Shown here: piece by piece, positions 60,381 through 63,970 of the stretch
How positions within the stretch are numbered: the first letter of the stretch is position 1
How the letters are laid out: each line of letters starts with the position of its first letter
Source: a virus
Lineage: Duplodnaviria > Heunggongvirae > Uroviricota > Caudoviricetes
Length of the DNA: 64,000 nt
Strand: one strand, 5' to 3'
IMG/VR virus record: IMGVR_UViG_3300042402_002792
The notes under the pieces: generated by a model
Database searches by the model: none
What the model was told of the DNA's origin: nothing
Seen by the model: the letters and a program-made list of their open reading frames with translations, nothing else
Made by a program: the position numbers and the translations under genes

Positions 60381-60528
60381 GCCCGAAATGGGTCTACAGC
60401 CCAAAAAAAATAGCCGCGCAAAAAATTTTACAAGCTACTAAATGCTGAGGCCGGGGTTGTTTTTACAGTGCCCAAATGGGTCCTGCACTCTAAAAAAAAT
60501 TCTGCGCAAAAAATTTAGGTGGAGTACT
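60381..60528. repeat. Imperfect ~55-bp direct repeat with A-tracts
   Basis: GCCC(G)AAATGGGTC..A8..GCGCAAAAAATTT at 60381 and 60470. Confidence 0.8.
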
Positions 60529-60644
60529 TTTCTTTTCAAGGTGGTGATTTAGCACCACTAAGCTGTAATAAGTTAGTATTAATAATAATAATATAAAGCC
60601 CCGACCCCTCTCATCTATCGCCCCGACCACCGAACCCCTCAGCC

Positions 60645-60788
60645 AAAAAAAAATCCTAACCTACCGGGAGCGAATCGGATCAGTTAGGATTCAAAACACC
60701 CCTGAGGATGTTTATAGGGTTAGCCTGCTAAATACTTTGCCGGGAGCGAATCGGACTTACAGAGTACTAACAGGGCCTAGCCCTGTTA
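60645..60788 (-). ncRNA. Candidate structured 3'-UTR/small RNA with two anti-SD loops, ending in an intrinsic terminator
   Basis: Four consecutive hairpins; identical 16-mer at 60664-79 and 60740-55; final stem followed by a U tract on the minus strand. Confidence 0.6.
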
Positions 60789-60790
60789 CG

Positions 60791-61702
60791 TTATGCTCTA
60801 CGCATACACGTAACCTCTGCAACAGCACGCCAATTGCTAGGCATGCTCTTCTTCAAGTCTGCTATTTTTAGTACTGTACGCAATGACAGTTCACGCAGCT
60901 TCTTCTTGTTGTCATCCACAAAGTCAATCAACACTTCCTTCTCAAGGTCCGTGAACTCGTAGTCGTCCAGCATGCCGCACTCAGTAACCACTTGCTTGAT
61001 GCGCAAGATCTTCTCACGCTCTGTGTCAATGGTCAAGTCCAAGTAGTGGCAACGGCTCTCAAGTGCTTCCAAGTGATCACGTAGCTTCTTGCTCTTGACA
61101 TTGTCAAACTTGATGTTGGTGATGAAGATTGCACCGCCCTGGAACTCGAATGAGTTGGGCACACCTTCTGAACGCAGGAGTCTGCTGTCTGTGTTCCAGT
61201 GGATTGTACGCTTCTTACTGCTGTCCAGTGCTGCCTTGAGAATGTTCAAGCTCAGGTCATCTAACAGTACTGAGTCACAGTCATCAAACACTAGAATACA
61301 CTTCTTGTCTGAGAACTCGTAGAGCTTCTTGTACAAGCCAATGGCACTCATAGCACCCTTGACCACTTCGTACTTTTTCAGCTTTGAGTCGTTGGCAACG
61401 TTAGCAAACACATCGTGACGGCTCAATACAGCTTCTACACCAAAGCTCTTGCCTACGCCTGGGGGACCTGTTACGATCATAGCACGTACATCACCCTTCT
61501 TGACAGCACGGGTCATGTCGTCCAGGATAGTAAAGCGGCTACGCAGACGCTCCATGATCTCTTCATCTGTTACACCTTTGAGCTCACGCTCTTTGGCCTT
61601 GATTGCATCAGTGTCAATGCCAAAACTGACAACTGATTCCTTGCTGGCTTTCTTCATGTTAGAAACCGTCTCCAAATTTAGTACTTTATAGCCTTTAGTC
61701 AT
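60791..61702 (-). CDS. AAA+ family ATPase (early region)
   Basis: GPPGVGKS Walker A, ILVFDDCD Walker B, ALESR arginine finger; ATG 61702 follows a GGAGCGA RBS. Confidence 0.88.
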   Translation of the reverse strand: MTKGYKVLNLETVSNMKKASKESVVSFGIDTDAIKAKERELKGVTDEEIMERLRSRFTILDDMTRAVKKGDVRAMIVTGPPGVGKSFGVEAVLSRHDVFANVANDSKLKKYEVVKGAMSAIGLYKKLYEFSDKKCILVFDDCDSVLLDDLSLNILKAALDSSKKRTIHWNTDSRLLRSEGVPNSFEFQGGAIFITNIKFDNVKSKKLRDHLEALESRCHYLDLTIDTEREKILRIKQVVTECGMLDDYEFTDLEKEVLIDFVDDNKKKLRELSLRTVLKIADLKKSMPSNWRAVAEVTCMRRA

Positions 61703-61734
61703 TGCTCGCTCCAATGTTGTTTAAGTAAGTGTAT

Positions 61735-61763
61735 ATTATACTATCAAGCGTACTCGTTGTCAT
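61735..61763 (-). promoter_or_regulatory. Early sigma70 promoter
   Basis: ATGACA-17-TATAAT. Confidence 0.75.
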
Positions 61764-62037
61764 CCACTTTGGTTAACATGTTAGCAGGCACCCGCCACAA
61801 GCCACCTAAGGTCTTAACAGTAACGTATTTGATAGCAATCTTGGTCACAAAGCCAGTCATGTTCTGTCCAGTCTTAGTGCTGGTAAAGTTCACGTTATCA
61901 CCTAGTGCCAAACTGGCTTTGGTCAGTTTGGCTAAGGTTGCACGTTTCCATTTGACTGCATCAATGATGGCTGTCAGCTCTGTGTTAGACAAGTCACTAA
62001 ACATGATTGCCTGGTTGATCTCTTGTACTGTACGCAT
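61744..62037 (-). CDS. Small early hypothetical protein (SH3-like C-terminus)
   Basis: Own promoter and AGGAGCGA RBS; GDNVNF...GFVTKI...WRVPANML. Confidence 0.8.
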   Translation of the reverse strand: MRTVQEINQAIMFSDLSNTELTAIIDAVKWKRATLAKLTKASLALGDNVNFTSTKTGQNMTGFVTKIAIKYVTVKTLGGLWRVPANMLTKVDDNEYA

Positions 62038-62067
62038 AGGTCGCTCCTGTGTGTTGTTTAAGTCTTA

Positions 62068-62096
62068 ATTATAACAGCTTTAGCACCAGCTGTCAA
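62068..62096 (-). promoter_or_regulatory. Early sigma70 promoter
   Basis: TTGACA-17-TATAAT, perfect consensus. Confidence 0.9.
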
Positions 62097-62463
62097 CCAT
62101 TAATACGGGCTTCTTCATAACCCGTTTTACAAAGTCCTCGGGCTCGTCGTCGCAACGTACCATCATAAAGCCCATGCTCTCTACAAGGTCTACCTCGCAG
62201 ATCTGCAGGTCCAGAGCAGCCGCCTCAAAGGCAATGTTCATCTTAGTTAGGGCATACTTAACGCCTGCTTCAAAGGCCGCATACTCGCCATTGCCTACAT
62301 CTTCAAAGTCAAACTCGGACTCCATAATGTGTGCGTACTCTTGTCCATCTGCTACGATGAACTTGCCGATCTTCTTCCAGTTGCTCTGCTTCTCACTGTC
62401 AAAGTGGTCACAGCACTCGTTAATGTCAAAGCTGGCAAACTTGTCATAATTTACTTTAGTCAT
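62080..62463 (-). CDS. Early hypothetical protein
   Basis: Own promoter and GGGAGCGA RBS. Confidence 0.8.
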   Translation of the reverse strand: MTKVNYDKFASFDINECCDHFDSEKQSNWKKIGKFIVADGQEYAHIMESEFDFEDVGNGEYAAFEAGVKYALTKMNIAFEAAALDLQICEVDLVESMGFMMVRCDDEPEDFVKRVMKKPVLMVDSWC

Positions 62464-62494
62464 TTCTCGCTCCCTTTTGTGTTAATATGTATGT

Positions 62495-62535
62495 ATTATA
62501 GCACCAAATAATAACCCTGTCAACCGATGGGTTAT
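62495..62535 (-). promoter_or_regulatory. Early promoter with stem-loop around the -35
   Basis: TTGACA-17-TATAAT; ATAACCC...GGGTTAT stem encloses the -35. Confidence 0.9.
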
Positions 62536-62756
62536 AGCCACTGTTTATAGTCACCATGCTCTTCGTTGTCGTCGTAGCCTGCGTTATAGGCTTCTACTTC
62601 GTCAGGTGTCATGTCTTTGTATGTGACACGCGGTGAGCTACCAGTGTCGCCCATGTAATAGTGTGGCGTACGACCTCTGCGGTAGTAGCTGTCTGCCATG
62701 CCGCGATCATATGGGCCACCGTGGCGGGTATCAATAACAATGTGTTCTCTATACAT
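62532..62756 (-). CDS. Early hypothetical protein
   Basis: RHGGPYDRGMADSYY; AAGGAGC RBS. Confidence 0.8.
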   Translation of the reverse strand: MYREHIVIDTRHGGPYDRGMADSYYRRGRTPHYYMGDTGSSPRVTYKDMTPDEVEAYNAGYDDNEEHGDYKQWL

Positions 62757-62783
62757 GTCTGCTCCTTGCTTGTCTATGTGTTA

Positions 62784-62823
62784 ATTATAGCACCAAATAA
62801 TAACCCAGTCAACCGTAGGGTTA
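62784..62823 (-). promoter_or_regulatory. Early promoter with stem-loop around the -35
   Basis: TTGACT-17-TATAAT; spacer identical to the one at 62501-62517. Confidence 0.9.
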
Positions 62824-63111
62824 CCAGGCAAGCTCTTTTGCTGGGTAGCGGATCTTGCCCTCGTACTCCAACTGATCCTTCTCAAACTCTGTGAGGTAGT
62901 CGTTGGCTACAACTTCCCAGCCCAGGATGTACTCGCGATAGAACTCATTGTCGCACTCGATCTGTGAGCGCAAGGCCATCACAGTCTCTGTGACCTTGTT
63001 GACATTGATCTTCTTGACCACATAGTCACTGCCACCTTTTGGCTTCCAGTAGGGCTCATCAGCCGTACCGTAGTTCTCGTACACTTGGGTGGTAATCAAT
63101 AGTTTAGCCAT
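62821..63111 (-). CDS. Early hypothetical protein
   Basis: TQVYENYG...WKPKGG; AAGGAGCGAA RBS. Confidence 0.8.
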   Translation of the reverse strand: MAKLLITTQVYENYGTADEPYWKPKGGSDYVVKKINVNKVTETVMALRSQIECDNEFYREYILGWEVVANDYLTEFEKDQLEYEGKIRYPAKELAW

Positions 63112-63143
63112 TTGGTTCGCTCCTTGTTGCTGTCTATGTGTCT

Positions 63144-63172
63144 ATTATACTGTCTTTGGGCTAGAGTGTCAA
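63144..63172 (-). promoter_or_regulatory. Early sigma70 promoter
   Basis: TTGACA-17-TATAAT; the -35 contains the upstream gene's TGA stop. Confidence 0.9.
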
Positions 63173-63378
63173 GCCAGTTCGCGTTGTTTTTTAACAACAG
63201 CCGCCATGCTGTCGATAAAGCCCTTTTGCTCGCGCTTGCTCATCAGCGCCAGCATCTGCACAGCCATGCTCTCCAAGTAGCCAGCGGCATAGGCGTGTGA
63301 GCCATACTTCTCGTATGTAGCATCGGAGAACTTGCGCAGGATCTCTTTAAACTCTACTTGATTGTCTGTATGAAACAT
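63169..63378 (-). CDS. Early hypothetical protein
   Basis: Own promoter and AAGGAGC RBS. Confidence 0.78.
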   Translation of the reverse strand: MFHTDNQVEFKEILRKFSDATYEKYGSHAYAAGYLESMAVQMLALMSKREQKGFIDSMAAVVKKQRELA

Positions 63379-63407
63379 TTGGGCTCCTTTTGTGTCTGTA
63401 TGTATTG

Positions 63408-63436
63408 ATTATACTGCCTTTGGGCTAGCCCGTCAA
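63408..63436 (-). promoter_or_regulatory. Early sigma70 promoter
   Basis: TTGACG-17-TATAAT; the -35 contains the upstream TGA stop. Confidence 0.88.
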
Positions 63437-63648
63437 CCAAATTTTGCAAGAAACCCGTCACGGATTAGGGACATTTCCGTGTCTTCTACATAGAAGTCTG
63501 TAGTAGGATCGTAGTACTGACCTTGCTTGTTGTCATAATACAACACTCTGCCCGAGAAGTTGAACGGACCTTCTAGACCCTTGCGTGGACCGTATTTGAC
63601 ACGCATCTGGTCCATCTCATACTTGTCTGCTACAACCTTGTAACCCAT
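63433..63648 (-). CDS. Early hypothetical protein
   Basis: LEGPF...GRVLYYD...YYDPTTD; AAGGAGC RBS. Confidence 0.8.
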   Translation of the reverse strand: MGYKVVADKYEMDQMRVKYGPRKGLEGPFNFSGRVLYYDNKQGQYYDPTTDFYVEDTEMSLIRDGFLAKFG

Positions 63649-63678
63649 CGCCTGCTCCTTTTGTGTCTGTATGTATGT

Positions 63679-63717
63679 ATTATACAGCCAAAAAGAAACC
63701 CTGTCAACCGCAGGGTT
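63679..63717 (-). promoter_or_regulatory. Early promoter fused with a terminator hairpin
   Basis: TTGACA-17-TATAAT; AACCCTG/CAGGGTT stem followed by TCTTTTT directly after tRNA-Arg. Confidence 0.88.
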
Positions 63718-63721
63718 ATTC

Positions 63722-63798
63722 TGGCCAGACAGGAGGGATTCGAACCCCCGACCGACGCCTTAGAAGGGCGTTGCTCTATCCAACTGAGCTACTGTCTG
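63722..63798 (-). tRNA. tRNA-Arg(TCT)
   Basis: Cloverleaf CAGACAG/CTGTCTG, anticodon loop CTTCTAA, TTCGAAT, encoded CCA. Confidence 0.95.
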
Positions 63799-63802
63799 AT
63801 TC

Positions 63803-63880
63803 TGGTGGGCCCTCTGTGAGTCGAACACAGCACCAATGGATTATGAGTCCACTGCTCTAACCAACATGAGCTAAGGGCCC
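63803..63880 (-). tRNA. tRNA with CAT anticodon, probably Ile2
   Basis: GGGCCCT acceptor, loop CTCATAA, ACCA end; resembles bacterial lysidine tRNA-Ile2 rather than tRNA-Met. Confidence 0.88.
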
Positions 63881-63884
63881 TTTT

Positions 63885-63970
63885 TGGTGCTCGGACCCGG
63901 AATCGAACCGGGACGCCATTACAGCGAGAGATTTTAAGTCTCTTGTGTCTACCTATTTCACCATCCGAGC
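63885..63970 (-). tRNA. tRNA-Leu(TAA)
   Basis: 86 nt, long variable arm, loop CTTAAAA, ACCA end. Confidence 0.95.

Follow-up and report, generated by a model that had tools for sequence, protein, structure and literature searches.

In a 64,000-nucleotide stretch of viral DNA (Caudoviricetes; IMG/VR record IMGVR_UViG_3300042402_002792; the whole stretch is called the window below), we find that the untranslated stretch at the 3' end (3'UTR) of an early gene for an AAA+ ATPase, at positions 60,645 to 60,788 on the minus strand, reads as four hairpins, two of which display one and the same loop. In Watson-Crick terms this loop is complementary to a Shine-Dalgarno (SD) sequence with a private extension, GGAG followed by CGAA, which is carried by the ribosome-binding sites (RBSs) of sigma70-driven early genes, that of the ATPase itself included. 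The hairpin structure is conserved in relatives, the tag is restricted to the early region, and loop and tag co-vary between clades. We consider it very probable that the loops and the early RBS tag base-pair to control early protein synthesis. Our preferred reading, to which we assign a probability of about 0.7, takes the element for an anti-RBS RNA within the 3'UTR of the early ATPase mRNA, one that would repress or autoregulate early translation both in cis and in trans. An earlier, sequence-only reading of the window had proposed such an anti-RBS function, and it is supported here by conservation of the element, by enrichment of the tag at early RBSs and by the co-variation of loop and RBS.

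Four hairpins between the ATPase stop codon and a terminator

The ATPase stop codon, read directly from the sequence, lies at 60793-60791 on the minus strand, and all four hairpins that had been predicted to follow it on that strand are present. Hairpin 1 (60768-60788, UAACAGGGC-uag-GCCCUGUUA) begins 3 nt past the stop, consists of a 9-bp stem and a 3-nt loop in both the sequence and the minimum free energy (MFE) fold, and is found in the window's sub-clade (alignment A1). Hairpin 2 (60733-60766) carries the first copy of the anti-RBS loop, AUUCGCUCC at 60751-60743, on an inner CCG/CGG stem and an outer stem UACUcUG/CAaAGUA. Hairpin 3 (60694-60713, AAACAUCC-ucag-GGGUGUUU), again recovered from both sequence and MFE fold, is a stem flanked by an A-run and a U-run which may be a first, weaker terminator; in relatives its position is retained, and its stem varies in length and sequence (A1 columns 100-126). 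Hairpin 4 (60645-60691) has the outer stem AAUCCUAAC/GUUAGGAUU (60691-60652) with the second loop copy at its apex (CCG-AUUCGCUCC-CGG, loop 60675-60667), and is followed on its 3' side by nine U residues (60653-60645). It thereby has the G+C-containing stem-loop and subsequent U-tract on the transcribed strand that characterise an intrinsic terminator.

The loop is 9 nt long and the same in hairpins 2 and 4. The 15-mer that includes it, CCGATTCGCTCCCGG, occurs exactly twice in the window (60664-78 and 60740-54) and in none of 100 shuffles, and with the preceding T the identity of the two copies grows to 16 nt. This confirms the identical 16-mer that had been noticed on two differing stems, and the selection on the loop that had been suggested from it is borne out by the relatives described below. 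The whole region folds modestly better than shuffled sequences (z = -2.6); the strength of the observation comes from the comparison with relatives and not from folding energy.

Searches against known families returned little. Rfam holds no relevant family, either for the whole window at the gathering threshold or for the region at E <= 10, with one chance snoRNA match as the only return, and blastn of the region against cultured phages gave no match. A likeness of the motif to a tRNA T-arm was dropped, as position 58 misfits and no match at this place is given by ARAGORN or by Rfam. We also rejected readings at the level of DNA (origin iterons or a protein operator), since the spacing of the RBS copies from start codons is fixed at 4-10 nt, and the copies in the loops belong to co-varying hairpins.

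A ribosome-binding tag private to the early genes

The RBS tags of the early genes, identified by sequence and duplex energies, lie at 61706-63658 on the minus strand. Full tags are found at 61706-12 and 62041-47 (both GGAGCGA), 62467-74 (GGGAGCGA) and 63116-23 (GGAGCGAA), and three further early genes carry GGAGC only (62761-65, 63383-87 and 63654-58). The full tags stand at precisely the coordinates first given for them. By number alone GGAGCGA is unremarkable, with seven occurrences in the window, about as many as expected by chance; two of these are the complements of the loops, and four serve as early RBSs, all within 1.5 kb. Among the other genes called in the window, about 50, GGAG is rarely used and GGAGCGA never, in keeping with the earlier remark that the RBSs of structural genes differ. 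When the loop was paired with all 57 translation start regions of the window, the four full tags ranked as the top four (-12.3 to -13.1 kcal/mol, with -12.6 kcal/mol for the RBS of the ATPase), and the same four tags reach -5.6 to -7.7 kcal/mol with the canonical 16S tail.

The enrichment at early RBSs extends to relatives, in which GGAGCGA is present in 142 of 328 distinct GGAG-type RBS contexts (GGAGC in 226 of 328) and in 130 of 249 promoter-led leaders. The RBS consensus there, GGAGCGAA with C or A and seldom U as the next base, offers 8 nt of complementarity to the loop, and the ATPase's own RBS reads GGAGCG(A) in every relative inspected. We also put together a complete 383-kb relative (G007) from fetched pieces. 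It has 15 candidate RBSs that read GGAGCGA. Nine of them fall at 87.6-98.1 kb, on the same strand as the loops (99.09 and 99.16 kb) and directly upstream of them, and these two loops are the only copies of the complement displayed on hairpins in that genome. Together the clustering and the hairpin display show the tag to be a private mark of the transcribed region at whose end the loops stand.

Conservation of the loop in relatives

We fetched 80 loci with relatives of the ATPase, among which those with at least 68% ATPase identity (L121-L178) are referred to as clade 1. The core of the element is present in every one of these loci, directly 3' of the ATPase stop and on the strand of the gene. 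All 49 distinct clade-1 3'UTRs carry it, in 93 copies altogether, usually with two and sometimes with one or three per 3'UTR. Within these the 9-nt loop is invariant, which answers in the affirmative whether the loop is conserved, and its closure is usually CCG/CGG, rare variants such as GUG/CAC, UUG/CAA and CUG/CAG preserving the pairing. The stems, in contrast, diverge, with 66 different helix strands among 87 distinct instances. Each flank nevertheless pairs with its own partner (mean -15.0 kcal/mol) far better than with partners from other lineages (-6.6 kcal/mol), and pairing between own flanks reaches -8 kcal/mol or better in 86 of the 87 instances. This comparison of own and foreign flanks, made per sequence, replaced a column-wise alignment of 30 terminator modules, on which RNAalifold did not recover the outer stem because internal-loop lengths vary.

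Additional support comes from 11 close relatives, in which the stem of hairpin 4 shows compensatory changes at eight pairs and the loop and closing pairs of hairpin 2 are invariant in all 11. Of 96 instances, 69 show the motif as an exact 9-nt hairpin loop in the MFE fold, the last copy always sits atop a stem followed by a U-tract, and a U-tract on the sense side is present in nearly all lineages. The invariant loop, the diverging but paired stems and the position at the terminator together indicate that the element is a real, selected, single-stranded structure with a sequence-specific loop. It is abundant in freshwater and marine viromes, with well over a hundred contigs in two clades.

Copies were also seen away from the ATPase 3'UTR. 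A 278-kb relative (L203; G009 at 110,792 and 110,821) has a second twin-loop unit inside its early region, composed of CCUAGG-AUUCGCUCC-CCUAGG and CCG-AUUCGCUCC-CGG, and the same unit is present in L003 and L115; after its ATPase gene L203 carries a single variant loop, GUUCGCUCC. In nine contigs (L010, L025, L042, L053, L069, L083, L095, L102 and L105) the exact 15-mer hairpin stands 3' of another conserved gene, ending in ...ACTGCCTAA. The fetched stretches of these contigs contain no homologue of the ATPase, so the element is not restricted to that gene.

Loop and tag change together between clades

A second state of loop and tag was found in two loci with about 65% ATPase identity, L187 and L188. 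In these TCGCTCC is absent, three hairpins with a GCCCUC loop follow the stop codon, the last of them on the terminator, and the RBSs of the promoter-led early genes read GAGGGC(A). A second scan with that ATPase extended this group to a sister clade, clade 2 (L187/L188 and L223-L299), which has 2-5 hairpins with GCCCUC loops in the corresponding position, the last of them on the terminator. Here GCCCTC is present in 52 of 53 distinct 3'UTRs (143 copies, one to five per 3'UTR) and TCGCTCC in none, and where the leaders carry GAGGGC in 250 of 418 cases and GGAGCGA in one. Clade 1 is the reverse, making the association of loop and tag fully reciprocal (49/49 versus 0; 52/53 versus 0). Duplexes of the two cognate loop-tag pairs are calculated at -13.1 and -14.2 kcal/mol, against -5.4 and -6.1 kcal/mol for the non-cognate ones. 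Between the two clades, regulator and target sites have therefore changed together with complementarity kept, and the co-variation of loop and RBS between phages that the sequence-only reading had looked to is realised in the sister clade.

No convincing case of a third loop/tag state was found among L180-182/G010, L289-297 and L245-247. The L180-182/G010 lineage has generic GGAGC RBSs, and the loop element was not found near its ATPase; L289-297 have a CUCC-containing loop after the ATPase and few RBSs; and L245-247 mix the two RBS types, with GCCCUC loops alone within the locus. The loop complement GGGAGCGAAC (loops 60743-60751 and 60667-60675) resembles what we take to be a 16S rRNA helix-24 segment, GGGGAGCGAACAGG, of many non-enteric bacteria. 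This likeness is probably a coincidence, as to our knowledge the clade-2 loop has no counterpart in helix 24.

These data also bear on the view that the hairpins are plain terminators or recombination relics, that is, inverted promoter-leader-RBS cassettes of a hyperplastic early region that serve for termination only. The early region is indeed made of repeated cassettes with stem-loops over the -35 box, and the flank of copy 1 resembles an inverted translation initiation region (TIR) cassette of another gene (TAAATACTTTG-CCGGGAGCGAA compared with TAAATACTTTTGTAA-CCGGGAGCGAA). A neutral relic, however, would not hold 15 nt invariant while the stems diverge to 66 variants, nor would one expect 2-5 copies that are always displayed on loops, or a joint switch with the RBS in the sister clade, and we regard this explanation as very improbable.

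Proposed mechanism and points that weigh against it

If the element is an anti-RBS RNA as we propose, a terminator-protected 3' fragment or the full mRNA would accumulate as early transcription proceeds. Its loops would pair with 7-8 nt of the tagged RBSs, at a predicted -12 to -13 kcal/mol versus -6 to -8 kcal/mol for the anti-SD of the ribosome, and such pairing would block binding of the 30S subunit and lower the translation of early genes. On the ATPase mRNA the action would be in cis, as a negative feedback, and on the other early mRNAs in trans. We infer the transcript, its release from the 3'UTR, its stability and the sign of its effect from the sequences compared here. Shut-off of host translation by the same RNA is unlikely, since pairing with a bare GGAG is weak.

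More tentatively, and we think rather doubtfully, the loop/tag pairs could be orthogonal 'private Shine-Dalgarno codes', with the 3'UTR RNA both timing the shut-off of the early class, as an RNA counterpart of T4 RegB, and conferring immunity to superinfection. If this is true, an incoming phage that carries the same tag would have its early genes silenced in a cell already filled with the RNA, and superinfection immunity would be the reason for which the clades diverged into non-cross-reacting pairs (AUUCGCUCC/GGAGCGAA versus GCCCUC/GAGGGC), similar to the heteroimmunity of P1/P7 c4 but among lytic jumbo phages.

Several observations weigh against repression by an anti-RBS RNA, at least in its simplest form. 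Three of the seven early genes carry only GGAGC, which allows 5-nt pairing at about -8.5 kcal/mol. The stoichiometry is unfavourable, with two loops for 7 to about 30 tagged mRNAs, so that the RNA would have to accumulate. The two clear loop/tag states amount to essentially one evolutionary switch, albeit one with dozens of sites per genome, and L273 has retained GCCCUC-type loops though most of its RBSs read GGAGAUC. Counts of G-U versus A-C pairs do not discriminate between the strands, and co-variation alone cannot separate a sense anti-RBS loop from an RBS mimic on the plus strand. Finally, the strict conservation of nine loop bases plus the CCG/CGG closure exceeds the need of a 7-8 nt pairing, and the loop may have an additional reader, either a protein or a fully complementary target such as a late-gene hairpin.

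As a separate observation on L273 (IMGVR_UViG_3300040809_000996), most of its early leaders (1318, 1652, 2736, 4666 and 6037) contain a cis anti-SD, ACUCC, separated by 4-5 nt from GGAGAUC, and the GCCCUC-type loops still stand after the ATPase. The anti-SD could fold back onto the ribosome site, and this lineage may thus have solved the problem of control in another way.

The excess conservation of the loop raises the question of whether the loops are in the first place sites for a protein (a phage RNA-binding regulator, or a termination or antitermination factor), with RBS complementarity secondary. Besides the nine invariant loop bases and the 3-bp closure, the adjacent internal-loop sequences are semi-conserved (UAAGU/UAAAU on the 5' side, and CCAACG...CGGUAA in copy 1 of many lineages), again beyond the need of a 7-8 nt pairing. 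Such a site would however leave unexplained both the occurrence of the GCCCUC loop with the GAGGGC RBS in the sister clade and the confinement of the tag to genes upstream of the loops, and no candidate protein was identified; we hold this to be quite improbable.

Complementarity and co-variation would fit equally well if the pairing were real and its effect positive, in that it shields the SD from a GGAG-directed nuclease (RegB-like or of the host), or stabilises or circularises early mRNAs. T4-type phages do destroy early mRNAs at GGAG with RegB. Against this, in all characterised cases that we know of, 30S binding is sterically blocked when a duplex of 8 bp covers the SD, and we judge a protective role to be unlikely. 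A search for Pfam RegB (PF10715) in two complete relatives gave no match, and positive-control genomes likewise gave none.

Strand polarity

The sense (minus) strand is favoured because the U-tract stands on that side only and because the element often lies between same-strand early genes near the next promoter; for clade 2 and parts of clade 1, what comes next is an early gene on the same strand, whose own promoter lies 30-60 nt from the element. The polarity is thus drawn from the terminator and the gene arrangement, and we hold it provisionally.

The plus strand has features of its own. A T4-type late-promoter-like sequence, GCTAAATACT (60727-60736, plus strand, identified in the alignment), stands 3 nt upstream of the plus-strand hairpin CCG-GGAGCGAAU-CGG (60740-60754), and of 11 aligned relatives 10 have AGTATTTAGCA unchanged, L145 having one substitution in it. 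Read on the minus strand, GCTAAATACT corresponds to AGUAUUUAGCA, which follows copy 1 and is nearly invariant among the aligned relatives of the sub-clade. In other phages of the group, G007 included, a TAAATA-N-CCGGGAGCGAAUCGG-ATG unit heads a real gene, that of a CsgF-like secreted protein. Given this unit elsewhere, it is possible that a late antisense RNA is made or that the element arose when a TIR cassette was inverted, and GCTAAATACT may accordingly either drive such an RNA or be the remnant of an inverted cassette.

These features are the basis of an alternative in which the functional RNA is the plus strand, with GGAGCGAAU serving as an RBS-mimic decoy for a tag-binding factor or as a late antidote to the sense RNA. 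A mimic would explain the co-variation of loop and tag equally well, the late-promoter-like sequence is nearly invariant among the aligned relatives of the sub-clade and stands 3 nt upstream of plus-strand copy 1, the TAAATA-hairpin unit does head a gene elsewhere, and the G-U test gives the sense strand no advantage. However, the U-tract is confined to the sense side, hairpin 4 has no preceding A-tract and copy 2 no plus-strand promoter, the TAAATA motif is limited to one sub-clade, and the element of clade 2 and of several clade-1 lineages has early genes of the same strand on both sides, with the next promoter 30-60 nt away. Weighing these, we find a functional plus strand improbable, and we retain the sense-strand anti-RBS RNA as the preferred reading.

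The CsgF-like unit is of interest in itself. In L026, L028, L029, L049, L050, L107 and G007 (at about 3,526, minus strand) TAAATA is followed after 8-13 nt by CCGGGAGCGAAUCGG and immediately by ATG, and the open reading frame behind it mostly encodes a secreted protein of about 155 amino acids with a CsgF-like N-terminus (ELVxQFxNPxFSGIG), a few being truncated or unrelated. The 5' hairpin of this gene is complementary to the early 3'UTR hairpin at 14-15 of 15 positions, and is on that ground a candidate kissing-loop partner. A homologue of the CsgF-like gene was not found in this window.

Comparison with known systems

Early-gene switch-off in large lytic phages is known mainly from T4, where it depends on proteins (RegB, RegA, AsiA/MotA and Alc): the RegB endoribonuclease cuts early mRNAs at GGAG, and RegA is a protein repressor. 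The outcome proposed here is similar, namely a selective inactivation of early mRNAs via the SD region, whereas the proposed effector is an RNA that would recognise its targets by base-pairing. In Staphylococcus aureus RNAIII and in RsaE/RoxS, several C-rich hairpin loops pair with the SD sequences of multiple mRNAs. Unlike these Firmicutes loops (UCCC), which address generic G-rich SDs of the host, the loops described here gain specificity from a 3-4 nt extension beyond GGAG that is used by early genes only.

With regard to the position of the element, the closest parallels are OppZ and CarZ of Vibrio cholerae, autoregulatory small RNAs (sRNAs) that derive from 3'UTRs and exert negative feedback on their own transcription unit (Hoyos et al. 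2020, PMC7398697). Similar to these, our element lies between the stop codon and a shared terminator (49/49 clade-1 and 52/53 clade-2 3'UTRs) and is complementary to a translation start region in its own transcription unit (the ATPase RBS GGAGCGA). OppZ and CarZ use a single linear seed, and their release by RNase E and dependence on Hfq have been shown experimentally (PMC7398697). The phage element differs in its repeated identical hairpin loops, its many separately promoted tagged targets and its phage context, and it is known from sequence alone.

The architecture recalls the cuckoo or alpha-r14 (CcsR) sRNAs of Alphaproteobacteria, which consist of 2-4 adjacent hairpins with the loop motif CCUCCUCCC (Reinkensmeier and Giegerich 2015, PMC4615179). 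Common to both are adjacent hairpins with the same C-rich, anti-SD-like loop motif on highly variable stems. The cuckoo RNAs are bacterial and carry CCUCCUCCC, whereas here the loop is AUUCGCUCC or GCCCUC, stands in a phage 3'UTR and matches a private RBS tag; with a different loop motif and no Rfam match at E <= 10, we find no evidence of membership in that family.

Among phage RNAs, the loops of the c4 antisense RNA of P1 and P7 pair around an RBS in the same operon and block translation of ant/icd, as part of temperate immunity (PMC12197685). Here too the loops of a phage RNA are set against an RBS region, and the differences in specificity between P1 and P7 (heteroimmunity) are comparable to the two orthogonal loop/tag pairs. 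Unlike c4, which has one target (ant/icd) in a temperate phage, the present element belongs to a lytic-type jumbo phage, is embedded with a terminator in a 3'UTR and faces a whole tagged class of early genes, and the C4 family of Rfam gave no match at the gathering threshold or at E <= 10.

A literature search found no paper describing this loop/tag system. If correct, it would be an RNA-only early shut-off built from an SD tag on every early gene, a multi-loop RNA that ends the early transcript, and an orthogonal, co-evolving pair of the two. The two natural orthogonal pairs make the system directly testable by swaps, and could yield compact, programmable parts for translational control. It also illustrates that metagenomes alone suffice to reveal the co-variation of a 3'UTR with many dispersed ribosome sites.

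Genome context

The window belongs to a T4-like myovirus, with a tail sheath, T4-type fibres, a DnaB helicase and halogenase-type auxiliary genes. Completeness figures of the CheckV type for related contigs imply a genome size near 370 kb; among the related records, two are rated complete (383 and 364 kb). The ATPase gene (60791-61702, minus strand; phrog_1250, NrdC.10/11-like of T4-type phages, by Pfam AAA and PHROG matches) starts with ATG at 61702 behind the RBS GGAGCGA at 61706-61712, and the hairpins constitute its 3'UTR. In tblastn the ATPase matched 1307 phage records, many of them T4-type (Tevenvirinae). The nearest cultured homologue, in Pseudomonas phage PA5oct (50% identity), is followed by a 44-nt gap with no such element.

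Upstream of the ATPase, on the same strand, are six small genes and three tRNA genes. Every early gene has a sigma70-type promoter of its own, and these seven promoters were located by promoter scan and sequence at 61735-63707 on the minus strand (63707-679, 63436-408, 63172-144, 62812-784, 62523-495, 62096-068 and 61763-735), and each fits TTGACA-17-TATAAT at 11-12 of 12 positions. The scan gave 17 sites where 4.9 were expected, and its best seven are these early-gene promoters. For the seven protein genes the cassette consists of the promoter, often a stem-loop over the -35 box, a CA-rich leader of 20-25 nt and the GGAGC RBS. This style matches that of early genes in T4-type phages and, with a near-consensus sigma70 promoter on each gene, supports the label 'early' that had first been given to them from the sequence. 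In the remaining genes of the window, about 50 calls, GGAG is weak or missing and the promoters are of the TAAATA late type.

In the cassettes at 61735-63717 the hairpins (AACCC...GGGTT with a U-rich tail) enclose the -35 box of the next promoter, and recall the promoter-early stem-loops to which the shuffling of genes in T4-type phages has been attributed. The tRNA genes at 63722-63970 (minus strand), tRNA-Leu(UAA), tRNA-Met(CAU) and tRNA-Arg(UCU), immediately precede the early genes on the same strand, with a TATAAT box at about 63,984, and the same Leu/Met/Arg trio is found within the early region of G007 and G009.

Past the terminator is a conserved non-coding zone (60381-60644, minus strand), which is also present in L122-L178, in L187 at about 4,540 and in L188 at about 3,030. 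In order, it contains G-rich GGTCGG repeats, GGGGTCGGGG with a TATA(A/T)AT box directly behind it, the inverted repeat CTGTTG...CAACAG and, last, GGTGCTAAATCACCACC. Both clades retain the GGGGTCGGGG-TATA unit, which could be an unusual promoter or another RNA gene.

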